Below are positions 5,442 through 60,641 of a stretch of 64,000 nt of DNA, in pieces (the first letter of the stretch is position 1; each line of letters starts with the position of its first letter). The translations under genes were made by a program, and so were the position numbers. The stretch spans positions 12,845-76,844 of the forward strand of contig JAUYKM010000016.1 of NCBI GenBank assembly GCA_030699125.1. The letters run 5' to 3'. The notes beneath the pieces were generated by a model. That model searched no databases. It was not told the origin of the DNA and was given only the letters and a program-made list of their open reading frames with translations. This stretch comes from Candidatus Daviesbacteria bacterium. Lineage in GTDB: Bacteria > Patescibacteriota > Microgenomatia > Daviesbacterales > UBA10151.

Positions 5442-6970
5442 TCCATAGTTGCTGGAGGTTTAGTGGTGATGTCATAAACTACCCTGGAAACTCCCGGGAC
5501 TTCATTGACAATTCTGGAGGAAATTTTTTGCAAAATTTCATAGGGGATTTTGGACCAAACTGTAGTCATCACATCTTTGGACTCAATAATTCTTATTGCC
5601 ATAACTTCCAAGTGAGAGCGCTCATCACCTTTGACTGCCGTACTTTTGGTATCAGTTAAAATGGCAAAACTCATATAAACTTTATCGTAAAGATTGGCTT
5701 TTGTTACTTCCTCAACCACTATTGCATCAGCCTGTTGTTGTCTTTCCAAACGCTCTTTTGTCACTTCCCCAATAATCCGAATGGCTTGTCCAGGTCCTGG
5801 AAAAACTTGCTTGGAGACTACTTCATTTGGTAACCCCAGTTTTTCCCCAATCAATCTCACTTCATCTTTATAAAAATTTCTCAAAGGTTCCAAAAGCACA
5901 AGACTCATCTCATCCGGCAATCCCCCAACATTATGATGAGATTTAATCTTATCTGCCTTTTTGGTTCCCCTACTTTCAATCACATCAGAATAAATTGTTC
6001 CCTGGGCTAAAAACTTTACTCCCTTTAACTTTTTGGCCTCTCTTTCGAATAGTTTAATATAAAGAGCACCAATGGTTTTTCTTTTTTGCTCCGGATCTGT
6101 AATATCTTTGAGGGCAGAGAGAAACTGCTTTTTGGCATCAACAATAATGGGATTTAACCTTAGATGTTTTTGGAAAATTTGTAAAACTTCCTCTTTGGTG
6201 CCAATTCTCATCAACCCGCTTTCAATATAAATAGGATATAAATTTTTACCAATGGCTTGACCAATCAAAGCTGCCGCCACTGTTGAATCCACCCCCCCGG
6301 AAACTGCACAGATAACTTTATTATTTCCCACCTTCTGTTCTATATTTTCAATAATGGCATTAACATTGATTGATTGCTTAACGATTTTTTCTCCACAAAT
6401 ATTTTGGGCAAAGTTAATAAGAATTTTTAAACCAAAGACAGTGTGCATAACTTCCGGATGGAACTGCACCCCAAAAATCTTATTTCTTAAATCTGCCACT
6501 GCTGCTGCTTTAACAGAATCTGTTTCTCCTAAATATGTAAAACCTTTGGGGATGATCACCACGCTGTCTCCGTGACTAACCCAAACAACAGAGTTATTTT
6601 CCACGCCGGAAAGAATACCCCCTTCATTTATTATGATCAGGTTGGCCGGTCCATATTCTTTATGTCCTGAAACTACTTTACCTCCCAAAAGACGGGCTGT
6701 TAGCTGCCAACCGTAACAGATTCCAAGAATTGGAATTCCCAAACTGAAAATTTTTTTATCAATCGTGGGAGCGCCTTTACTGTATACAGATGCCGGACCT
6801 CCTGAAAGAATAATTCCAGCCACTTCATCGTCATTCCCGCGAAGGCGGGAATCCATAATAAACTTAACAGCATCTTCCGGATCAACAATCTTTACCAAAA
6901 CACCATGATCCCGAAGTCTTCTTCCAATTAAATGTGCAGTTTGTGACCCAAAATCAACTAGAGTTATCAT
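5432..6970 (-). CDS. guaA: GMP synthase (glutamine-hydrolysing)
   Basis: 512 aa; GATase GICYGWQ, PP-loop VSGGVDSTV, C-terminal ...PPATMEWE. Carries an in-frame palindromic-repeat insertion encoding MDSRLRGNDDE near the N-terminus. Confidence 0.92.
   Translation of the reverse strand: MITLVDFGSQTAHLIGRRLRDHGVLVKIVDPEDAVKFIMDSRLRGNDDEVAGIILSGGPASVYSKGAPTIDKKIFSLGIPILGICYGWQLTARLLGGKVVSGHKEYGPANLIIINEGGILSGVENNSVVWVSHGDSVVIIPKGFTYLGETDSVKAAAVADLRNKIFGVQFHPEVMHTVFGLKILINFAQNICGEKIVKQSINVNAIIENIEQKVGNNKVICAVSGGVDSTVAAALIGQAIGKNLYPIYIESGLMRIGTKEEVLQIFQKHLRLNPIIVDAKKQFLSALKDITDPEQKRKTIGALYIKLFEREAKKLKGVKFLAQGTIYSDVIESRGTKKADKIKSHHNVGGLPDEMSLVLLEPLRNFYKDEVRLIGEKLGLPNEVVSKQVFPGPGQAIRIIGEVTKERLERQQQADAIVVEEVTKANLYDKVYMSFAILTDTKSTAVKGDERSHLEVMAIRIIESKDVMTTVWSKIPYEILQKISSRIVNEVPGVSRVVYDITTKPPATMEWE
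6830..6854. repeat. GC-rich palindromic hairpin element GTCATTCCCGCGAAGGCGGGAATCC inserted in-frame in guaA
   Basis: 8-bp arms (ATTCCCGC/GCGGGAAT) around a 4-nt loop. Encodes MDSRLRGNDDE at a position where E. coli GuaA has no corresponding residues. Same family as 23340-23363, 43748-43771, 59323-59397. Confidence 0.75.
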
Positions 6971-23339: not shown

Positions 23340-23423
23340 GTCATTCCCGCGAAAGCGGGAATCTATATTTTATGGATCCCGCATCAAGTGCGGGATGACA
23401 GAGATCGTTGAGACGCCTCTGTC
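23340..23423. repeat. Cluster of three GC-rich hairpin repeats (GTCATTCCCGCGAAAGCGGGAATC; GGATCCCGCATCAAGTGCGGGATGAC; GACAGAG-N13-CTCTGTC) between ybaB and folD, overlapping the folD 3' end
   Basis: Perfect stems read directly. The last two units encode the folD C-terminal tail ...VTEASQRSLSSRT and span its stop codon (23384-23386). Confidence 0.75.
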
Positions 23424-34692: not shown

Positions 34693-35184
34693 TTATCGCT
34701 CCAAATCTAAAAATTTATATTTCAATCCGTCACTTTCATGTTTTTCTTCAAACACCACTTTTTTAAAATCAGAATAATCCGGGAAAAAGGTGTCTGCCTG
34801 GGGATTTCCTTTCACAATAGTTAAGTACAATTTATTAGCTCTTTTAATTGCCTGCTGATAAATCTGGCCCCCACCGATGATGAACACTTCTCCGCCGGCT
34901 GGCGGCTTCTCTTTTTCTTTGACCATCTTCATTGCCTCATCTAAAGAATGTACTGCTAGTACCCCCTCCACATAATAATCTAGATCTCTGGTAATAATAA
35001 TGTTCGTTCTATTTGGTAAAGGATGTCCGATGGATTCAAAAGTTTTTCTGCCCATGATAATCACATGACCCTCTGTTAACTTTCTAAATCTTTTTAAATC
35101 ATCCGGAATACGATAAATTAGTTTATTATTTTTCCCAAGTGCTTTATTGCCAGAGGCAATCACCGCAATCAAGGATATTTTCAT
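34693..35184 (-). CDS. folA: Dihydrofolate reductase
   Basis: 163 aa; IAVIASGNKALGKNN.LIYRIPDDLKRFR..T.GH.IIMGRKTFESIG. Confidence 0.9.
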   Translation of the reverse strand: MKISLIAVIASGNKALGKNNKLIYRIPDDLKRFRKLTEGHVIIMGRKTFESIGHPLPNRTNIIITRDLDYYVEGVLAVHSLDEAMKMVKEKEKPPAGGEVFIIGGGQIYQQAIKRANKLYLTIVKGNPQADTFFPDYSDFKKVVFEEKHESDGLKYKFLDLER

Positions 35185-36143
35185 TAAAAACCTCCAACAA
35201 CAGTCACTTCACCCTTGATGGGTGGGTAGGGATCATATCCTTCCAAAGTAAAATCCTCAAATTTGAAATCATCAATATTTTTAACTTTAGGATTTATCTT
35301 CATTTTTGGAAAAGGTCTTGGCTTCCTTTTCAATTGCTCTTTAACCTGGTTAAAATGGTTACTATAAATATGCACATCACCGAAGGTAAGAATAAACTCT
35401 CCGATTTTTAATCCCACAATTTGAGCAATCATCATTGTAAAGAGTGCATATGAGGCAATATTGAATGGTACCCCCAAGAATAAATCTGCGCTTCTCATAT
35501 AAAGCTGTAAAGATAATCTATTTTTCCGAGTATTTAACTGATAAATAGTATGACAGGGAGGCAGAGCCATTGATTTTCCGGGAGCTGCCATCTCATATAT
35601 AAATTCCGGATTCCAGGCAGAAACGACAATTGATTTTCGAAAAGGCGTGGTTTTCAATTCATCAAGAGCCCAGGCCAATTGATCTATCACCCTGCCATCC
35701 GAAGTTTTCCATCTCCTCCACTGAACCCCATAAACATTTCCCAAATCCCCCCACTTTTTAACAAAAGGATGATTAACTGGCAATTCTTTCATTTTCTGTA
35801 TGAATTCTTCATGTGTTAAACTTTTCACTTTTCCCTTCGCACTTTGCACTTTATATGATTTATAAGCCCACTCATCCCAGATATGTACATCCTGATCCAC
35901 CAAGTATTTAATGTTTGATTCCCCTTTTAAAAACCAAAGTAGTTCATGAATAATCCCTCTTAAAAAGACTTTTTTGGTGGTTAAAAGCGGAAAACCTTTT
36001 GACAAATCAAATCTAAATTGCCTTCCAAAAACAGATCTAATATGTACACCTGGATTATTAAAAACCGGTTTGTTAGTACCATTTTTTAAGATGTCTTTTA
36101 AAAGATCCAAATATTGGTATTCTTCGTGTCTTTGTTTTGCCAT
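35184..36143 (-). CDS. thyA: Thymidylate synthase
   Basis: 319 aa; active-site PPCH (LPPCHTIYQ), [18 protein letters not shown]. Confidence 0.9.
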
Positions 36144-40264: not shown

Positions 40265-40544
40265 AACGAATTCTGTGAGAAATGGTAACTGATTGAACAG
40301 ACTCACCAGTTCTTCTTACACCTAATTTAGAGCCTAAAACCTGAGAGGCATTAAAAATTTCTATCCCTAAAAGTTCTCCCTTTTCGCCAAGCTCTAAACT
40401 AATATCAGGAGTAATCCCTCTGTGTTCCTCCTCAACACCACTTTTAATATTAAGCCACAAAATATCATGTTTTTTATCGTAATATACTTTTTGCTTAGTC
40501 TTCTTCATTTTTTGCCCACCTTCCTCTTTTAAGTTTATTTTCAA
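40263..40544 (-). CDS. DUF2283-family protein, putative antitoxin partner of DUF4258
   Basis: 93 aa; DILWLNIK...ELGEKGELLGIEIFNAS matches the DUF2283 signature. Confidence 0.6.
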   Translation of the reverse strand: MKINLKEEGGQKMKKTKQKVYYDKKHDILWLNIKSGVEEEHRGITPDISLELGEKGELLGIEIFNASQVLGSKLGVRRTGESVQSVTISHRIR

Positions 40545-40785
40545 TCTCTTGCCTGGAAGTAGGATAAATAGTAACAGCTTGAATCTCTAACTCCATTATA
40601 GCATAGGCCACAACCATTGGACGAAGCTTTCCATTATATTCCATGTTTTTTACAACAATATCATAACCAGTATCCAGATCTTTATATTTTTCTTCAGAAT
40701 TCTGAATAATAACTTTAGGATAACTTTGTGGGATTTTTCTTTCTTTAAGACGAATTTTAAGATGAGGTATTAAAACAATTTTCAT
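40495..40785 (-). CDS. DUF4258-family protein, putative toxin (second locus)
   Basis: Likely start at internal Met 40785 (MKIVLIPHLKIRLKERKI...), 13 nt after the topA stop. The track's longer ORF (to 40872) overlaps topA. H..R...R.I ... VV pattern of DUF4258. Overlaps the DUF2283 gene by 50 nt. Confidence 0.55.
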   Translation of the reverse strand: MKIVLIPHLKIRLKERKIPQSYPKVIIQNSEEKYKDLDTGYDIVVKNMEYNGKLRPMVVAYAIMELEIQAVTIYPTSRQEIENKLKRGRWAKNEED

Positions 40786-40798
40786 TTTATTAATGAGG

Positions 40799-42943
40799 TT
40801 ACTTCTCCCCTCCGGGGCTCGCAATGACAAGTTCTTCTGGTTTATCAGACTTAGGCTTTGTCCAAGAAGCAAACTTGCAGACTGGCCAGTTTTTGCAGCC
40901 GTAAAAAGTTTTACCCCTTCTGGTATGTCTGACTACAATATCCCCACCATCTTGCGGACACTTAACATCAATTATTTCCTCTAAAGCTTCTGTATGACGG
41001 CATTTGGGAAAAGTGGAACAGGCCAGAAATTTACCAAACTTCCCTATCCTTATCACTAATTCATTACCACACTCCGGACATTTTTTACCAGCCAGTTGGG
41101 GTTCTATTTTCATTTTTTCTGCTTCTTTAAATGTTAACTCCAATTTTTTCTCAAATGGCTGGTAAAATTGTCTAACGGTGGGACGCCACTGTCTTTCCCC
41201 ATTGGCTATCTCATCCAGTTCATCCTCCATCTGGGCAGTAAAAGAATAATCAACAATATCCGGAAAATATTCCACTATAAAATCATTAACAGTAAAACCT
41301 AATTCTGTTGGAATAAATCTTCTTTCCATTCGCTCAACATAAAATCTTTCTTGAATGGTAGAAATAATGGGAGCATAGGTGGAAGGCCTACCAATTCCCA
41401 ACTCTTCTAATTTTTTAATAAGTGATGCTTCATTATACCGGGGTAGTGGTTCGGTAAAATGTTGATCAGGTAAAAGTTGAATTAAATTTAGAGAATCATT
41501 TTCCAAAAGTTTTGGCAATATTTTTTGACCGGTATCTTTCTCTCCCGCTTCGCCCACGCCTTCAGCGTCGCTCTGCGCGAAGCGAGGCGAGTCATCTTCC
41601 AGTTTTTCTTTTTCATAAAGTTTTAGCCAACCATTAAATTTGATTACTGAACCAGTTGCTCGAAGAAGATAACTATCAGCAGTCACGTCAATTGTGGTTT
41701 GGTCTAAAATTGCCTCATTCATTTGACAGGCCACAAATCTTTTCCAAATTAATTCATATAACCTGATATGATCCTTATTAAATCCATTTCTGGTCCTTAG
41801 ATCCTCACTCCTGACTCCAACATCAGTCACCCTGATTGCCTCATGTGCTTCTTGAGCATTTTTGGATTTTGATTTATAAATCCTGGGTTTGGTAGGTAAA
41901 TATGATCGGCCCAAAAAATCTGCAATGAATTTGCGGACAGCAAGAATGGCCGAGGAAGATAAATTAACTGAATCAGTTCTCATATAAGTTATCAGTCCTT
42001 GTTCATATAAATTTTGCGCCACCATCATGGTTTTTTTAGCAGACATACCCAATCTGTTGGAAGCAGCTTGTTGCAGGGTAGAGGTAATAAAAGGCGGATA
42101 AGGGAAACGGCGAACTTCTTTCTGAGTGATTTTGGAAACCACATACTGAGCTTTTTCCAGATTTTTAACATGCCCATCTACCTCCTCCTTATTCTTAATT
42201 TCCAGCTTCTTGCTATTTTGTTCTATTAGGATAGCAACAAAGTGATTTTTGTCATTCTGAGGCGAAGCCGAAGAATCTCTCAACTTGTTTGAGTCTCGCA
42301 TTCGCGAGAGATCCTTCACTTCGTTCAGGATGACACTTTGTGTCAATTCCGCCTCAATACTCCAATACTCTTGCGCTTTAAAAGCCTTAACTTCCCTTTC
42401 TCTTTCCACAATCAACCGCAAAGCCACTGACTGAACCCTACCAGCAGAAAGTCCTTTTTTAATTTTTTGCCAAAGCAGGGGGGATAATTTATAACCAACT
42501 AACCGATCCAAAACTCTTCTGGCCACCTGGGCATCCACTAATTTCAGATCTATTTGACGGGGTTGATTAAAGGCCTCTCTTATAGCTTCTTCGGTAATCT
42601 CATGAAAAACAACACGCTTTATGTCTTCACTTTTCACTTTTCCCTTATCACTTATCACTTGTTCCAAATGCCAGGCAATTGCCTCACCTTCCCGGTCAGG
42701 GTCGGTGGCAAGCCACAATGTATCTGCACCCTCCATCTCTTTTTTCATCTCATTAACTCTTTTTCTTTTATCTCTGGGGATAACATATTGGGGTTCAAAA
42801 TCATGCTCTATATCTACCCCAAGCTCTGATTTTGGCAAATCCCTCACATGTCCCATTGAGGCCTCAATAGTGTATTTATCCCCCAAAAATTTTTGCAAGG
42901 TCCTGGCTTTGGTAGGTGATTCCACGATTACTAAATTATTCAT
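40799..42943 (-). CDS. topA: DNA topoisomerase I
   Basis: Toprim VIVESPTKARTLQKFLG, catalytic and C-terminal CxxC zinc ribbons. The true start is probably Met at 42943 (MNNLVIVESP...). The track ORF starts at a TTG (43000) and reads through an upstream palindromic repeat (ILRYTQNDREK). Two in-frame repeat insertions at 42251-42334 and 41540-41593. Confidence 0.9.
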   Translation of the reverse strand: MNNLVIVESPTKARTLQKFLGDKYTIEASMGHVRDLPKSELGVDIEHDFEPQYVIPRDKRKRVNEMKKEMEGADTLWLATDPDREGEAIAWHLEQVISDKGKVKSEDIKRVVFHEITEEAIREAFNQPRQIDLKLVDAQVARRVLDRLVGYKLSPLLWQKIKKGLSAGRVQSVALRLIVEREREVKAFKAQEYWSIEAELTQSVILNEVKDLSRMRDSNKLRDSSASPQNDKNHFVAILIEQNSKKLEIKNKEEVDGHVKNLEKAQYVVSKITQKEVRRFPYPPFITSTLQQAASNRLGMSAKKTMMVAQNLYEQGLITYMRTDSVNLSSSAILAVRKFIADFLGRSYLPTKPRIYKSKSKNAQEAHEAIRVTDVGVRSEDLRTRNGFNKDHIRLYELIWKRFVACQMNEAILDQTTIDVTADSYLLRATGSVIKFNGWLKLYEKEKLEDDSPRFAQSDAEGVGEAGEKDTGQKILPKLLENDSLNLIQLLPDQHFTEPLPRYNEASLIKKLEELGIGRPSTYAPIISTIQERFYVERMERRFIPTELGFTVNDFIVEYFPDIVDYSFTAQMEDELDEIANGERQWRPTVRQFYQPFEKKLELTFKEAEKMKIEPQLAGKKCPECGNELVIRIGKFGKFLACSTFPKCRHTEALEEIIDVKCPQDGGDIVVRHTRRGKTFYGCKNWPVCKFASWTKPKSDKPEELVIASPGGEK
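41540..41593. repeat. GC-rich imperfect hairpin inserted in-frame in topA (encodes DDSPRFAQSDAEGVGEAGEKDTG)
   Basis: CTCTCCCGCTTCGC...GCGAAGCGAGGCGAGTC. Local GC far above the AT-rich flanks; arms CGCTTCGC/GCGAAGCG. Confidence 0.55.
42251..42334. repeat. Composite ~84-nt long-arm palindromic element inserted in-frame in topA
   Basis: Left arm GTCATTCTGAGGCGAAGCCGAAGAATCTC pairs with the reverse complement of right arm GAGATCCTTCACTTCGTTCAGGATGAC. Central small palindrome TCTCGC-ATTC-GCGAGA. 28 codons encoding ...SVILNEVKDLSRMRDSNKLRDSSASPQNDKNH. Confidence 0.75.
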
Positions 42944-42961
42944 ATTAATTATCTTTTCTCT

Positions 42962-43005
42962 GTCATTCTGAGTGTAACGAAGAATCTCTTGCGAATGCAA
43001 GAATC
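42962..43005. repeat. Half-copy of the long-arm element plus small palindrome (GTCATTCTGAGTGTAACGAAGAATCTC TTGCGAATGCAAGAATC) in the topA 5' region
   Basis: Sequence similarity to the 42251 element left arm; TTGC-GAAT-GCAA hairpin. Confidence 0.65.
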
Positions 43006-43033
43006 ATTATACAGAAGAAGTCAAATTTTTTAG

Positions 43034-43288
43034 TCATTCAAAATCCGAATCCAAAACCTGGGGATTAACTTTTTCTAACTCTTGCTTTAAATCAGTTGAT
43101 GAGTCAAACTGAAAAGTTTTGGGAGCATTCGGGGTGGGGATTGGCGTAGGATTAGAATTTATTTCACTTTGATTATTTGAAGAACTTTCAGGACTAACTA
43201 ATTGTTTAGCTTGATTTCGCAAAGGCCCAAATACAACTAACCCTATTCCTACTATTATTATAATACTTATAATTATTATCTTTTTCAT
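43034..43288 (-). CDS. Hypothetical small membrane-anchored protein
   Basis: 84 aa; N-terminal hydrophobic helix (IIIISIIIIVGIGLVVF) then S/N/P-rich tail. Confidence 0.4.
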   Translation of the reverse strand: MKKIIIISIIIIVGIGLVVFGPLRNQAKQLVSPESSSNNQSEINSNPTPIPTPNAPKTFQFDSSTDLKQELEKVNPQVLDSDFE

Positions 43289-43310
43289 CCTTAATCTTAG
43301 CTCCTAGTTC

Positions 43311-43679
43311 CTAGTTCTCCAATGCTTTTTCCACTTCCCCTTTAGCTCTTAACACTTTTCCCTTTAAAACTACCAAACTATTTCTTAATTTATTTTCAGA
43401 AGAAAAATTTTGCGCCCGCTGGAAGGCAATTGCCTCAGCAGTATAGGTGATCCAATAATCAGCAGTTTCAATAGTTGTATCCACGTTGCCAAAAGCCACC
43501 CTAGTTTCCTGTATTCCCTGCCTTGTTCTTAATTCCTCCATTATTGCAGCCATCCGGGAAACATCCTCCTCAAACCTAGTGCAAATCTTCTGATTCACCT
43601 CACCTAAAGATGGTACCGCATAAACCGTAATAGGGAAAAATACCGCTAATAAAGAAAGTGCAAAAATTAAACCTCTCAT
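43311..43679 (-). CDS. Hypothetical secreted protein
   Basis: 122 aa; signal-peptide-like N-terminus MRGLIFALSLLAVFFPITVYA. Confidence 0.4.
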   Translation of the reverse strand: MRGLIFALSLLAVFFPITVYAVPSLGEVNQKICTRFEEDVSRMAAIMEELRTRQGIQETRVAFGNVDTTIETADYWITYTAEAIAFQRAQNFSSENKLRNSLVVLKGKVLRAKGEVEKALEN

Positions 43680-43724
43680 TATTAAAACTTTACCACAATT
43701 GACTGACTGACATTACCACACTTT

Positions 43725-43771
43725 GTCATCCCGACGATTGATAATTAGATTCCTGCATTTGCAGGAATGAC
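43725..43771. repeat. Palindromic repeat pair (degenerate GTCATCCCGACGATTGATAAT + GATTCCTGCATTTGCAGGAATGAC) in the intergenic region downstream of the clp-like gene
   Basis: Second unit is a perfect hairpin (ATTCCTGC / GCAGGAAT). Same family as 59373-59397. Confidence 0.7.
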
Positions 43772-43773
43772 GT

Positions 43774-46284
43774 TTATGAAACTACCAACTCCACCCCAAC
43801 TTTAAATGTCTGACCTTTAACTAATTTATTTTCCAAAATCATCCTAGAAAGATTGGCTTCTAAAGTATCTTGAATCAATCTTCGAAGAGGTCTTGCTCCA
43901 AGTACTGGGTCAAAACCTCTTTTTGCCAATTCTCCCACCAACTCAGGAGAAAATTCCATCAAATATCCTTTTTCTTTCATCTGATTTTGCAATTGATTCA
44001 GTTTCAGTCTGACAATTTTTTGCAAATCTTCTTGTGAAAGCGGTTTAAACAACACCACATCATCAAAGCGATTTATCAGTTCCGGTTTGAAAACTTGCAA
44101 TATCTCATCATTTACCTGTTTATCCAAACTTTCTAAGGTTTGTCCTGTTTCCAAACCTTTGGCAATTGTTAAAGAAGCCGCATTAGAGGTGGCAATAATA
44201 ATGGTATTGGTAAAATCAATTGTCCTACCTGCCCCATCAGTTAATCTGCCATCTTCCAAAACTTGTAAAAATAAAGTTAAAATTTTAGGGTCTGCTTTCT
44301 CAAACTCATCCAAAAGAAGCAATGCATATGGTTTACTTCTAATGGCCTCCGTTAATAATCCACCTCCTTCCGATCCACCGATTAACCGACTCACCGACTC
44401 ACTGGATTGATATTCCGACATATCAAAACGGATAAAAGCTCCTTCTGTTTTAAAGTAAACTTCGGATAATGCTTTAGCTACCTCAGTTTTCCCTACACCG
44501 GTTGGACCCACAAATAAAAATGACCCGATTGGTCTTTTTTCTTCCCTTAATCCTGTGGCTGATCTTCTTAAACTATCAGAAATAACTTTAACTGCCTGCT
44601 CCTGATCTATAATCTTTTGATGTAAATCCTGCTCCAAATTAAGCAGTTTGCTATTATCCGCATTACCTATTTCTACAATGGGCACTTTGACCCGCTCAGA
44701 AATAATTTTAGTCACCACCTTTTTTGTGATCCAGCCATTTTGAGCTTGAGTCTGAGCCTCTTTTAAAATGCTCATAGCTGAATCAGGCAGAACTCGATCA
44801 TGGACCATTTTGGCGGATAGTTCAGCTACACTTTTTATGGCAAGGTATGTGGTTTTGATCTTACTATTCTTAGCAAAATTAATCGATCTGGATTCCAAAA
44901 TATTAATGGTATCATCTATTGATGCAGGAGATAATTCAACTTTAATAAATAGTCTGGCAAAAGCCCCATTTTTTTCCAAAATTTTGCTGTAGTTTTCCGG
45001 CTCAGTGGTGCCAATAAATTGAAATTTGTCGGATTCCAGATATGGAAGAATTAATGAGTAAAGATTTAAGCTTAATCCTGCTTCTCCCATCCCTAAATTG
45101 TGAATTTCCTCCACAGCCAGGATGACATTTTGAGCAAACTCCACCTCCTCAAAAATATCTTTAATCTTTTCAGCCAATTCTCCCTGAGTTTTAATACCGG
45201 ATAAGAGTTTGGTTAAATCCAAAAGCATTAACCTTTTAATAGCTAGAGCCTCCGGCGCATCCCCTCTGACAATTAGTCTGGCCAGGTGTCTCACCAGGGC
45301 GGATTTACCTGCTCCAGGTTCTGCCACCACCACTACATTTTTACCAGTTTGTTGAGATAAGATATTTACAATGTGTTCCACCACCCCATTGGTTCTGATG
45401 AAATTGATACTTCCTTGAGTGGCAGCGGTTTTGGTCAAATCTTCCCCAGACCTATCCAAATTGGGAGTTGGTGTTCCCAACCAACCTCGATTAATACCTT
45501 TGAGATGATGTATGAAGAAATCATCATTCCAAATCCACACCTTTTTCCATTGATTTCTTTTTTTCTCCAGATAAAAGAGAGTTTGGCGGAAATCCTCCAA
45601 GGCAAGATTATATTTTATTAACTCATTTTCAATATGAGGAATATTAAAAAGCGCTGCCACAAAAAAATGTGAAGCCCTGATATATTCACTTCCTCCATCC
45701 TTAGCCAACTGATATGCCAGATACCCCACCCCTTGCCAATCCTCAATATCAGAATTCGAGATCATTTCTGGTTTTATTTCCAGAAAAGTTAAGAAATAAT
45801 TAATCTGAGAACTTTTTAAAAGTTTATTAAAATTTAGATCCTTTTTTTTAATTTCCGCACATTGCCAAAATTCCTCTCTTGACTTTATTTGCCAGACTTT
45901 TTTGTGAGGATGTAAAGAAACATGGAGAATAAATAACCCCACTCCTGCCAAAAATAAAACAGCACTAACAATAAACGGAATATTTATAATTGCTAGGATT
46001 GGTAGCAAAAACCAGTAAATGGATATCGCCAAAATCAGCACAGTTGCCAAAAGATAAGCAAATAGCCCAATGATAATTCTTGTGAACCTAAACAGAAAAC
46101 TTAAAATTCTTCCCACAATTGAGGAGTCATGAAAAAGAGGAGTAAATATCAATCTCCACATCAGTCCTACGGTCAAATCTTCCTCCAAAAGCAGGATGAG
46201 ATTCCTCCAAGTTCTGATAAAAGTATCCAAGCCCTCTATATACCAGAAACGTACAAGGTGAATTGGCAGGTATAAGTATTTCAT
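43774..46284 (-). CDS. Membrane-anchored Hsp100/Clp-family double AAA+ ATPase (ClpB/ClpC-like lacking the usual N-domain)
   Basis: 836 aa. First ~125 aa contain about 4 hydrophobic helices. D1 VVVVAEPGAGKSALVRHLARLIVRGDAPEAL; D2 FLFVGPTGVGKTEVAKAL...LLLDEFEKA...GARPLRRLIQ. No long coiled-coil M-domain and no clear IGF loop seen. Confidence 0.75.
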   Translation of the reverse strand: MKYLYLPIHLVRFWYIEGLDTFIRTWRNLILLLEEDLTVGLMWRLIFTPLFHDSSIVGRILSFLFRFTRIIIGLFAYLLATVLILAISIYWFLLPILAIINIPFIVSAVLFLAGVGLFILHVSLHPHKKVWQIKSREEFWQCAEIKKKDLNFNKLLKSSQINYFLTFLEIKPEMISNSDIEDWQGVGYLAYQLAKDGGSEYIRASHFFVAALFNIPHIENELIKYNLALEDFRQTLFYLEKKRNQWKKVWIWNDDFFIHHLKGINRGWLGTPTPNLDRSGEDLTKTAATQGSINFIRTNGVVEHIVNILSQQTGKNVVVVAEPGAGKSALVRHLARLIVRGDAPEALAIKRLMLLDLTKLLSGIKTQGELAEKIKDIFEEVEFAQNVILAVEEIHNLGMGEAGLSLNLYSLILPYLESDKFQFIGTTEPENYSKILEKNGAFARLFIKVELSPASIDDTINILESRSINFAKNSKIKTTYLAIKSVAELSAKMVHDRVLPDSAMSILKEAQTQAQNGWITKKVVTKIISERVKVPIVEIGNADNSKLLNLEQDLHQKIIDQEQAVKVISDSLRRSATGLREEKRPIGSFLFVGPTGVGKTEVAKALSEVYFKTEGAFIRFDMSEYQSSESVSRLIGGSEGGGLLTEAIRSKPYALLLLDEFEKADPKILTLFLQVLEDGRLTDGAGRTIDFTNTIIIATSNAASLTIAKGLETGQTLESLDKQVNDEILQVFKPELINRFDDVVLFKPLSQEDLQKIVRLKLNQLQNQMKEKGYLMEFSPELVGELAKRGFDPVLGARPLRRLIQDTLEANLSRMILENKLVKGQTFKVGVELVVS

Positions 46285-58595: not shown

Positions 58596-60641
58596 ATGCT
58601 TGAGAGAATTATTCCTTACTGCTTTTATGTCCTATTTTTTCTGACCCCTCTTTTTTGGACTTCGAAAAATTATGAACTTTTTGAGTTTAATAAAATGCTT
58701 TTGGTTTATAGTTTTACGGTAATAATTGTGGGTGTATGGATTCTCAAAATGATCCAGCAAAAATCCTTTATTTTTAAAAGAACTCCCCTGGATCTTCCTC
58801 TGCTTTTATTTTTATTAGCGAACATTTTAGCAACTATTTTTTCCATTGATAAACATGTCTCAATTTGGGGCTATTATTCCAGATTAAACGGCGGACTCAT
58901 ATCCATCATTTCCTACCTATTATTATACTGGGCCTATTGTTCCAATTTTGATGGCAAAAATATCAAAAAATTATTTTATTTTGCTTTTGCCTCCGGTACC
59001 ATCATTTCCCTCTGGGGAATTTTGGAGCATTTTGGTGTCTCCCCTTCCTGTATTATTTTAAGAGGAGAACTCAATGCCTCCTGTTGGGTGCAAGATGTTC
59101 AAGCAAGAGTTTTTGCCACCTTAGGTCAACCCAATTGGATGGCTGGATATTTAGCCATGCTAATCTTCCCTGCTCTGTACTTTTTGCTCACTGCCAAAAC
59201 TAAGGTTCAACAAGTTAGCAGTTACTTGTTACTTGTTACTTTCTATCTGGCTTTCACCTTCACCTACTCCCGGGGTCCCACATTGGGTCTGATTGGAGGA
59301 TTTATTGTTTTTATTCTACTGTCATCCCCGCGTAGGCGGGGATCCAATTCCGAATCTAGCTACTTTAATTGGATTCCTGCATTCGCAGGAATGACAAAAG
59401 GGATAATAGTTATTTTGTTATCCTTTCTAGCCATAAATCTCCTTTTTGGTTCTGCCCTCACAAACTTCAAATTGGTCTCCCAGTTTGCAGCACCCACAAG
59501 ACCCACTATCTCTTTACCACCATCTTCCGTAACTCAGCTGGAACAAGGAGGCACAGAATCAGGACAAATTAGATTTATTGTCTGGCGGGGAGCTTTGGAT
59601 ATTTTCCGCCATTACCCCATCTTTGGCTCAGGATTAGAAACCTTTGCCTATGCTTACTACCAGTTTAGACCGGTTGAGCATAACCTAACTTCGGAGTGGG
59701 ATTTTCTTTATAACAAAGCTCATAATGAGTATTTAAATTACTTGGCTACTACTGGTTTAATAGGATTTTTGACTTACATGGGAGTAATCGGAACTTTTGT
59801 AATATGGTGTGTTAAGGGAATAATGAATAAAGAATTAAGAATTAAGCTTAATTCATCATTCTTAATTCTTACCGCTCTATTTGCCTCCTACATCTCCTAC
59901 CTAATTTACAACTTCTTCCTTTTTTCCGTTGTCATTATTGCTCTCTTTTTCTATATTTTTCCTGCCATTGCTTTTGTGGCAACTGATTCCACAAAACAAC
60001 TGAAGTTTCCAAAAAAACTTTTCACTTCTTTTATATACCGTCGTCCTGCCTATACAAAAGCAACTCAAGTTATTATTGTCGTTTCCATCTTCTATCTTCT
60101 ATTCTCCATCTTCCAACTTTGGTATACAGATACCTTATTTGCCCAAGGACAAAGAGCCTCTGATGCCGGCAATCCTGGTAGGGCATATAATCTTCTCACC
60201 ACTGCTCATGAGATAAGAGGTGATGAGCCTTTTTATCAATCTGAACTTAGCCTTGCTGCTGCTTCGGCTGCCGTGGCTTTAGCCGAAATAGGTGATGCTT
60301 CCTCCTCAGCCACATTAAAAAATGAAGCTATTTCTACTATTGAACATGTTCTAAAAAACAATCCTAATAATGTCTCATATATGCGAGCTGGTATTAGAAC
60401 CTATTTTGAGCTCTCAAGCATAGATGAAAGTTTTATTGATGATACACTTACGGTCATCGACCAGGCGATTCAGCTTGCTCCCACTGATCCAAAGCTTTAT
60501 TACAATAAGGCCTTGATCTTACAGCTGAATGGAAAGGATGCAGAGGCCATTGAGACTTTACAGAAAGCCATTGAGCTTAAACCAAATTATGTCCAGGCTA
60601 TTGATCAACTAAATGAAGCCACTGCCTCAGCCAGACCATGA
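58596..60641 (+). CDS. O-antigen-ligase-like (Wzy_C) polytopic membrane protein with C-terminal TPR repeats
   Basis: 681 aa, about 12 TM; YNKAHNEYLNYLATTGLIGF (O-antigen ligase motif); C-terminal TPR-like NPNNVSYMRAG...YYNKALILQLNGKDAEAIETLQKAIELKPNY. Two in-frame palindromic repeats at 59323-59397. Confidence 0.75.
   Translation: MLERIIPYCFYVLFFLTPLFWTSKNYELFEFNKMLLVYSFTVIIVGVWILKMIQQKSFIFKRTPLDLPLLLFLLANILATIFSIDKHVSIWGYYSRLNGGLISIISYLLLYWAYCSNFDGKNIKKLFYFAFASGTIISLWGILEHFGVSPSCIILRGELNASCWVQDVQARVFATLGQPNWMAGYLAMLIFPALYFLLTAKTKVQQVSSYLLLVTFYLAFTFTYSRGPTLGLIGGFIVFILLSSPRRRGSNSESSYFNWIPAFAGMTKGIIVILLSFLAINLLFGSALTNFKLVSQFAAPTRPTISLPPSSVTQLEQGGTESGQIRFIVWRGALDIFRHYPIFGSGLETFAYAYYQFRPVEHNLTSEWDFLYNKAHNEYLNYLATTGLIGFLTYMGVIGTFVIWCVKGIMNKELRIKLNSSFLILTALFASYISYLIYNFFLFSVVIIALFFYIFPAIAFVATDSTKQLKFPKKLFTSFIYRRPAYTKATQVIIVVSIFYLLFSIFQLWYTDTLFAQGQRASDAGNPGRAYNLLTTAHEIRGDEPFYQSELSLAAASAAVALAEIGDASSSATLKNEAISTIEHVLKNNPNNVSYMRAGIRTYFELSSIDESFIDDTLTVIDQAIQLAPTDPKLYYNKALILQLNGKDAEAIETLQKAIELKPNYVQAIDQLNEATASARP
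59323..59397. repeat. Two palindromic hairpin elements (GTCATCCCCGCGTAGGCGGGGATCC and GGATTCCTGCATTCGCAGGAATGAC) inserted in-frame in the O-antigen-ligase-like gene
   Basis: Perfect 8-9 bp arms. Encode SSPRRRGSNSESSYFNWIPAFAGMTKG within a loop region. Confidence 0.75.

Follow-up and report, generated by a model that had tools for sequence, protein, structure and literature searches.

How an essential gene comes to carry a long palindrome within its coding sequence is the question raised by a 64-kb stretch of DNA from Candidatus Daviesbacteria (hereafter the window, i.e. the whole 64,000 nucleotides that were analyzed; 37% G+C). The gene is topA, which runs on the minus strand from 42943 down to 40799 and encodes a product of 714 amino acids (aa), and the palindrome is an 84-nt element at 42251-42334. 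Our answer, to which we assign a probability of about 70%, is that the element is a non-autonomous member of a repeat family dispersed in the candidate phyla radiation (CPR), the group including Daviesbacteria. It would resemble a miniature inverted-repeat transposable element (MITE) and represent selfish DNA tolerated in a surface loop of TopA. Observed here were the family and its layout, the spread of multiple copies in multiple contexts, the relation to a gene-bearing cassette, compensatory changes in the hairpins, the lack of target-site duplication and the in-frame state of the topA copy.

Sequence and fold of the element

A first-pass annotation of this DNA had described a nested palindrome of 84 nt, and had named its folding relative to shuffled sequence as one check. 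The sequence is as described, with the outer arms at 42251-42277 on the plus strand and 42310-42334 on the minus strand, and the fold is far better than that of shuffled sequence. As single-stranded DNA (ssDNA) the element reaches a minimum free energy of -20.9 kcal/mol versus -11.0 +/- 2.2 kcal/mol after shuffling (z = -4.62; 0 of 200 shuffles as good), and the RNA of the sense strand reaches -38.8 kcal/mol versus -22.3 +/- 3.5 kcal/mol (z = -4.77; no shuffle as good). The perfect hairpin TCTCGC-ATTC-GCGAGA at 42294-42309 is accompanied by another inner hairpin, CTCAAC-TTGTT-TGAG at 42279-42293, that was absent from the earlier description. In gene orientation the order is GTCATCCTGAACGAAGTGAAGGATC, TCTCGCGAATGCGAGA, CTCAAACAAGTTGAG, a single A and GATTCTTCGGCTTCGCCTCAGAATGAC. 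Terminal units were located by a unit detector (GTCAT, a 5-nt stem, the reverse complement and C), and related loci are cited by L numbers. The parts of the element are the following.

42251-42334, minus strand: complete four-hairpin element of 84 nt, in frame in topA (aa 204-231), peptide VILNEVKDLSRMRDSNKLRDSSASPQND
42310-42334, minus strand: left terminal hairpin unit in gene orientation, GTCATCCTGAACGAAGTGAAGGATC, found by the unit detector; the GIY-YIG genes in L049, L150 and L196 are flanked by the same unit type
42294-42309, minus strand: inner hairpin 1, TCTCGCGAATGCGAGA on the sense strand, with a 6-bp stem and a 4-nt loop, found by folding; exact match in at least 120 metagenome contigs
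42279-42293, minus strand: inner hairpin 2, CTCAAACAAGTTGAG on the sense strand, found by folding; many compensatory variants in the family
42251-42277, plus strand: right terminal hairpin unit, GTCATTCTGAGGCGAAGCCGAAGAATC on the plus strand, found by the unit detector; identical arm in the non-orthologous copies of L084, L113, L130 and L121

Only one of the six reading frames of the topA copy is open. Hence, any copy surviving within a gene must use that frame and orientation, which explains why the topA copy is in frame. An intein or intron appears unlikely, because the segment is just 28 aa long and its peptide has no nuclease or splicing domain. When positions 40500-44000 were compared with Rfam 15, no family reached the gathering threshold, and the two sub-threshold chance matches both lay off the element.

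A dispersed repeat family

The 24-nt module GAAGRATCTCTYGCGRATGCRAGA, which joins the left arm to inner hairpin 1, matches at least 120 metagenome contigs. Among the matches listed, to which the counts in this section refer, 91 distinct complete elements have been found with one four-hairpin layout, in which a left unit starting with GTCATYCTGA is followed by the two inner hairpins, first 1 and then 2, and by a right unit in inverted orientation. The two terminal units read GTCATYCTGA-(variable stem-loop)-GAAGRATC and are inverted relative to each other, and the inner hairpins read TCTCGC-GAAT-GCGAGA and CTSAAAC-AAG-TTSAG. Complete elements are 83-185 nt long, with modes at 88 and 94. The copies most like that of the window are not the orthologous topA copies, which are approximately 90% identical to it, but non-orthologous ones in L084, L113 and L130 (96.5%, within a membrane protein), L121 (94%) and L183 (93%).

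Copies occur in unrelated genes and in spacers, in both orientations, and some contigs hold two or three of them. Long stop-free frames contain 16 of the 91 complete elements (18%). In-frame copies give rise to the same peptide in other proteins, which were named from their translations with no family search, for example VILSETKDLLRMRDSNKLRDSSAKPQND in a class I tRNA synthetase; further in-frame hosts named by eye from translations are UvrA, a TatD-like protein, a DnaJ/HolB-like protein and others. A target-site duplication is lacking in 64 of 72 copies, and a T precedes the element in 86% and an A follows it in 85%.

The hairpins themselves have been kept while their sequences changed. At least two closing base pairs are present in 80% of the 122 distinct apical segments between GTCATYCTGA and GAAGRATC, versus 15% of shuffles. 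The variable pair of inner hairpin 1, which had been left free in the search pattern, is C-G in 83 cases, T-A in 17, a wobble pair in two and a mismatch in two, i.e. Watson-Crick in 100 of 104. Inner hairpin 2 occurs as CTCAAAC/GTTGAG, CTGAAAC/GTTCAG, CGCAAAC/GTTGCG, CTCAGAC/GCTGAG and in other variants. These variants indicate that all four hairpins are probably kept by compensatory change; the counts ignore shared ancestry, so they are to be read as an indication of selection on structure.

A scan of viral contigs with the element module gave no match, hence nothing in it points to carriage by phages. The first broad degenerate pattern for the arms also remained without a match, because stem lengths vary. 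Two abundant subfamilies have an extra outer inverted repeat around the GTCAT...ATGAC core, namely ACGAATTTCGCAGTT ... AGGAAGTGCGAAACTCGT and CAGGACTTACGCACCCAATT ... ACTGCGTAACTCCTGA, and are present at metagenome loci such as L090, L098, L106 and L125 as well as L108, L110, L128 and L155. These outer repeats suggest nested or composite elements.

A small GIY-YIG gene between the same hairpins

Small open reading frames (ORFs) with a GIY-YIG motif are present in related loci and match PF01541 at an E value of about 1e-18. The CPR proteins concerned are single-domain proteins of 76-100 aa. In L002, L010 and L049 each of these genes lies between inverted units of the same type as those of the element, and in L196, L179, L127 and L150 an ORF of approximately 92 aa with the GIY-YIG motif is preceded by the left unit and inner hairpin 1 and followed by inner hairpin 2 and the right unit. 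By comparison of these sequences, the topA element is a GIY-YIG cassette minus its ORF, a putative MITE-like derivative.

In L002 the cassette is situated directly downstream of topA, and the last topA codons themselves form a unit. The 3' tail of topA in the window is also made from a hairpin unit, now decayed.

40797-40828, minus strand: decayed terminal unit GTCATTGCGAGCCCCGGAGGGGAGAAGTAAC, coding for the last TopA residues, VIASPGGEK, and for the stop; in L002 the intact counterpart is followed directly by the GIY-YIG gene

The first-pass annotation had also suggested that the elements travel via structured DNA. This fits the fact that their ends are hairpins flanking GIY-YIG genes of a kind whose products were shown in other work to cut ssDNA with hairpins. 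Movement by the nuclease is our inference. The small ORFs adjoining the elements encode a YbaB-like protein and proteins without a family match, and no nucleases were found among them. The contigs with small CPR GIY-YIG genes (proteins P0121-P0240) are mostly very short, 0.4-4 kb, a length in keeping with multi-copy cassettes at which assemblies break.

The insertion as part of TopA

According to the first-pass annotation the palindrome was inserted as exactly 28 codons and would appear as an indel in an alignment with E. coli TopA, and both statements were confirmed. The 84 nt correspond to aa 204-231, and the phmmer alignment with the E. coli protein breaks at this place, where residues 201-239 of the query stand against 229-240 of E. 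coli, which leaves approximately 27 extra residues in the window protein. The loop comprises about 10 residues in E. coli TopA and in most of the best 120 TopA homologues, and in 94 of these 120 there is no insert of at least 8 aa at the loop near aa 205, just a short loop between EAEL and F-ATLIE. The same insertion has been found in two further assemblies, L081 and L082, with TopA proteins 76% and 72% identical to that of the window. In the AlphaFold2 model (mean predicted local distance difference test score, pLDDT, 69) residues 205-231 have pLDDT values below 50 and lie between strands 192-202 and 234-242, hence in this model the insert is at the disordered tip of a beta hairpin. Domain D2 of E. 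coli TopA comprises residues 216-278 and 405-472 and is away from the catalytic tyrosine; by analogy with that structure, the beta hairpin with the insert is probably part of D2.

Inserts of at least 8 aa cluster at four TopA loops among the best 120 homologues of Daviesbacteria type, at aa ~102 in 37, at aa ~205 in 26, at aa ~422-424 in 24 and at aa ~443-451 in about 17. Many of them contain peptides of repeat type, such as VIASEAKQS...PRND, HLRGE...HLGG and CHPERSEGS. At the loop near aa 205 different elements are present in different lineages; L001, the closest TopA relative, has another short repeat family, GGTCTTCGAC...GAGTCTCAGACC, at the same loop (L001 6598-6690). Relatives of this L001 repeat were seen at L159 1688-1741 and L025 10460-10483. 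Palindromic inserts of unrelated sequence were seen in the same TopA loop in L002, L009 and L034; one such insert consists of CACCTCCGAGGTG twice, encoding HLRGE...HLGG, and another is a 165-nt palindrome in L009. A further observation concerns a 32-nt repeat that is present with 88% identity at 42629-42660 (topA aa ~97-106) and at 35820-35851 (ORF 35184-36143, minus strand). It is built of AAGTGAW-like heptads and is in frame in both genes, with the peptides VISDKGKVKSED and an 11-residue one. The repeat coincides with the most often expanded TopA loop, where 37 of the 120 homologues have peptides such as VKSQKSKVKS.

From three copies in and around topA the first-pass annotation had suggested a hotspot as one possibility. 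That topA is a recurrent host, with four loops affected, stands, while the count of copies understates the case of topA and overstates its special status. Approximately 20 of 55 units in topA-centred loci lie in topA, which accounts for about 17% of the sequence, in a sample that is centred on topA and in which units are paired. The same family is also present in guaA, in a Wzy-like gene, between genes of the window and in unrelated metagenome genes. The excess of units in topA suggests a hotspot, which is most simply explained by permissive loops, perhaps with a contribution of a neighbouring cassette or of a DNA target preference.

One of the three copies was a second GC-rich hairpin insertion.

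41540-41593, minus strand: second in-frame GC-rich insertion of 18 codons, aa 451-468, DSPRFAQSDAEGVGEAGE, in low-occupancy alignment columns

It is a real indel, as 16 of its 18 residues are absent from the closest homologue P0002, and AlphaFold2 gives pLDDT values below 50 over aa 437-472, which span it. The supposed hairpin folds only weakly (z = -2.24, matched or beaten by 7 of 200 shuffles). A search of approximately 1.6 Mb of related DNA gave no relatives, so nothing ties the insertion to the 84-nt family.

Relation to known repeat systems

One close described counterpart is the NTS repeat of Neisseria, CGTCATTCCCGCGMAVGCGGGAATCYRG, which includes the shorter dRS3 repeat (Chenal et al. 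2025, PMC11893778). It is bound only as ssDNA by SsnA, a GIY-YIG protein of 94 aa that cuts a few bases upstream, 5' of GTCAT; NTS-ssnA-NTS is a common gene arrangement, and Ssn-related motifs (SRM) and Ssn homologues have been found widespread, with Rickettsia among the SRM-rich genomes (PMC11893778). A literature search on the characteristic peptides and on CPR in combination with MITEs or palindromes found no description of the present family beyond this work. The Neisseria NTS 28-mer matches the window at 6829-6856, within guaA, with 1 mismatch, and the published SRM pattern HGTCWYN(0-2)YYVSBRHN(0-5)WNVSBRGN(0-2)RNCYNB has three sites in the window (6829, 23339 and 23372) versus 0.06 expected.

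Like NTS and SRM, the hairpin unit of the element starts with GTCAT and has a C directly after the palindrome. The oriented-hairpin form, GTC plus a palindrome starting with AT and then C, was found in both arms and in a half copy in the topA leader. Inverted unit pairs around a single-domain GIY-YIG gene of 76-100 aa occur in the CPR loci L002, L010, L049, L196, L179, L127 and L150. The catalytic Tyr/Tyr/Glu are at 7/18/65 in the L049 protein by residue count and at 6/17/64 in SsnA, i.e. with the same spacing. Going by these likenesses, the topA terminal hairpins are putative variants of the NTS/SRM hairpins cut by Ssn nucleases. However, in the topA arms there is an internal loop of GA/AG and the apical stem is hypervariable, the CPR units are packed in a fixed four-hairpin miniature element, and 18% of the sampled complete CPR elements lie in long open frames, whereas only 2% of NTS are within genes in N. 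meningitidis (PMC11893778). The host also differs, being a CPR bacterium, and cleavage by the CPR enzyme would follow by analogy.

The in-frame state is reminiscent of the Rickettsia palindromic elements (RPE; Ogata et al. 2000, 2002), which are inserted in frame in unrelated housekeeping genes with a recurring peptide at fold-compatible sites (PMC10969869). The CPR element is likewise in frame in unrelated protein genes (TopA and, assigned by eye, a class I tRNA synthetase, UvrA and a TatD-like protein) with a recurring peptide. It differs from the RPE in its shorter length (84-105 nt versus about 150 bp) and in the phylum, as well as in the visible candidate for an autonomous partner, the GIY-YIG cassette. 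With MITEs and NIME/Correia-type repeats the CPR element shares that it is small, non-coding, multi-copy and dispersed and has terminal inverted repeats, and that its ends are common to a longer gene-bearing unit (the cassettes of L196, L179, L127 and L150). In contrast to both, the CPR copies mostly lack a target-site duplication (64 of 72), and the partner gene encodes a nuclease and not a DDE transposase. The REP/BIME-RAYT systems (IS200/IS605-type Y1) are similar in that hairpin repeats are tied to an enzyme for ssDNA hairpins, no target is duplicated and the repeats flank the enzyme gene, but the partner here is GIY-YIG and not HUH/Y1, and the repeat head is GTCAT and not GTAG. SRM repeats and Rickettsia-style coding palindromes are known kinds; new is a CPR variant of Ssn-type hairpin repeats that comes as a miniature form of a GIY-YIG cassette.

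Conservation and alternative explanations

Among the three orthologous topA copies the element is 89-94% identical overall and 89-96% identical at third-codon positions, in comparison to 51-61% at third-codon positions in the remainder of topA between the same orthologues. The sequence immediately flanking the element is as diverged as this remainder. Since identity at third-codon positions is as high as at all positions, the constraint is probably one on DNA and not on protein sequence, and the pattern fits constraint on DNA/RNA hairpins or homogenisation among copies and would not fit protein-level selection alone. Another conserved copy, which the first-pass annotation had correctly reported as a half copy upstream of the topA start, consists of one terminal hairpin and an inner hairpin.

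42962-43005, plus strand: half of an element, situated in the topA leader, with a terminal unit (42962-42986) and a variant of inner hairpin 1 at 42987-43002, TCTTGCGAATGCAAGA

The conservation could reflect a host function, with the hairpins being selected as cis elements. They might act as in Neisseria, where NTS repeats expose incoming ssDNA to SsnA and in this way shape recombination near particular genes; alternatively, they might serve as structures of a leader or terminator, or form cruciforms that respond to supercoiling and thereby tune topA. In favour of such a role, the DNA of the element is far more conserved than the synonymous sites of topA, and the leader half copy is near-identical at the same place in L016, L031 and L010; such near-identity holds in four lineages with TopA proteins only about 66-70% identical to that of the window. 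Intergenic copies immediately downstream of genes, the terminator-like score of inner hairpin 1 with the subsequent T-rich run, and the reduced transformation caused by NTS repeats in Neisseria (PMC11893778) point in the same direction. However, the same element is present, in either orientation, in numerous genes and spacers that are unrelated to one another. The site in topA is occupied by another repeat family in the closest relative and is empty in most TopA homologues, and the leader copy is absent in five related loci (L001, L002, L006, L009 and L081). Moreover, recognition constraints within a mobile family or gene conversion among copies explain the conservation equally well, hence we regard selection by the host as unlikely. 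The 28 residues might instead be an adaptive, lineage-specific extension of TopA domain D2 under protein-level selection, with the palindrome being incidental, because the insert is in frame in three diverged genomes and the loop near aa 205 often has extra residues in this clade. This is highly improbable in the light of the same DNA and peptide in unrelated proteins and outside genes, of third-codon conservation that matches that of all positions, of the predicted disorder of the segment, and of unrelated sequences at the same loop in other lineages.

GIY-YIG enzymes include homing endonucleases, and CPR bacteria are thought to take up DNA. Together with the much lower divergence of the element than of its host gene, this makes it conceivable that the copies at the same topA site result from repeated site-specific homing, in which the nuclease cuts and repair uses a taken-up allele bearing the element, and not from one old insertion. 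Against this stand the adjoining flanks, whose divergence equals that of the remaining gene and which so give no sign of a co-conversion tract, and the occurrence of the family at very many different sites, unlike site-specific homing elements; repeated homing thus appears improbable. A chance palindrome or an assembly artefact, for which one could quote only that short inverted repeats are generally frequent in AT-rich genomes, has a practically negligible probability, given that 0 of 200 shuffles fold as well, that the insertion is present in three independent assemblies and that at least 120 related copies exist elsewhere.

Several points nevertheless weigh against a mobile MITE-like element as the explanation. 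The strong DNA conservation of the orthologous copies may also reflect a host function. A six-frame motif search of the 64-kb window revealed no GIY-YIG gene, and approximately 3.6 kb past its right end, read from a second assembly, contained no nuclease. The nearest solved structures to the CPR nuclease are only distant UPF0213 proteins; its kinship with SsnA and a place in the Ssn subfamily (cd10448, GIY-YIG_unchar_3) are putative. The arms of the topA element do not fit the published degenerate SRM pattern. Most placements of copies in long ORFs rest on stop-free frames and not on gene calls, with ten translations inspected and named by eye. Finally, catalysis of transposition is not known for GIY-YIG nucleases, nor is a mechanism of insertion.

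If the palindrome is such a selfish repeat, its copies would spread by way of single-stranded hairpins on which the associated nuclease acts. The topA copy may persist because it landed in the sole open frame at the disordered beta-hairpin tip of domain D2, where 28 extra hydrophilic residues would be harmless, and the topA hotspot would mainly reflect the few permissive loops, perhaps aided by the topA-adjacent cassette in some lineages. The wider statement that CPR cassettes with Ssn-like GIY-YIG genes and their miniature derivatives spread via single-stranded hairpins, and thereby place a uniform peptide of some 28 residues in essential proteins (such as TopA, tRNA synthetases and UvrA), is put forward tentatively, as a possibility with somewhat less than even odds. 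If it is true, these would be the first protein-coding palindromes of the Rickettsia type with an identifiable enzyme partner, and the testable mechanism of spread might extend to the RPE. The present finding joins the hairpin-specific ssDNA nucleases of the Ssn type described in 2025 with the in-frame palindromes of Rickettsia, long known but unexplained in their mechanism, and with the unusual gene insertions of CPR bacteria. Provided that the link to the nuclease holds, the cassette and its miniature form represent a testable model for repeat movement without target duplication and a route by which repeats seed new peptide segments in essential proteins. The repeats also inflate and fragment CPR gene calls and assemblies, and recurring peptides born from them can be mistaken for real protein features.

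Further units in the window and sequence upstream of topA

In the entire window the unit detector found 11 units versus 1.16 expected. Apart from those in and around topA, the following elements were recorded.

6829-6856 (detector unit 6830-6853), plus strand: single NTS-type hairpin within guaA; reads DSRLRGND on the minus strand, about 7 extra residues compared with solved GuaA structures
23340-23399, strand not assigned: 3' end of a folD-like gene, with two NTS-type hairpins inverted relative to each other, found by the detector and the SRM pattern
43725-43771, strand not assigned: intergenic element made of an intact unit (43748-43771, minus strand) and a decayed one; it directly follows a ClpB-like gene
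59321-59395, strand not assigned: inverted pair of 75 nt that forms 25 in-frame codons (SSPRRRGSNSESSYFNWIPAFAGMT) of a gene for a Wzy/O-antigen-ligase-like membrane protein

A scan upstream of topA found no canonical sigma-70 promoter, the 7-nt spacer of a conserved motif at this place being too short. This motif, TTGACW-N7-TAYAAT, lies just upstream of topA in the window (43006-43024, minus strand) and likewise in L001, L002, L006, L009, L010, L016, L031 and L081. It is the sole such site in the 64-kb window, with 0.13 expected by chance and at least one site in 12 of 100 shuffles. Lastly, long ORFs are on the minus strand up to approximately 50 kb of the window and on the plus strand from approximately 51 kb, and the GC skew is less negative there; this region at about 50-51 kb may contain a replication origin.

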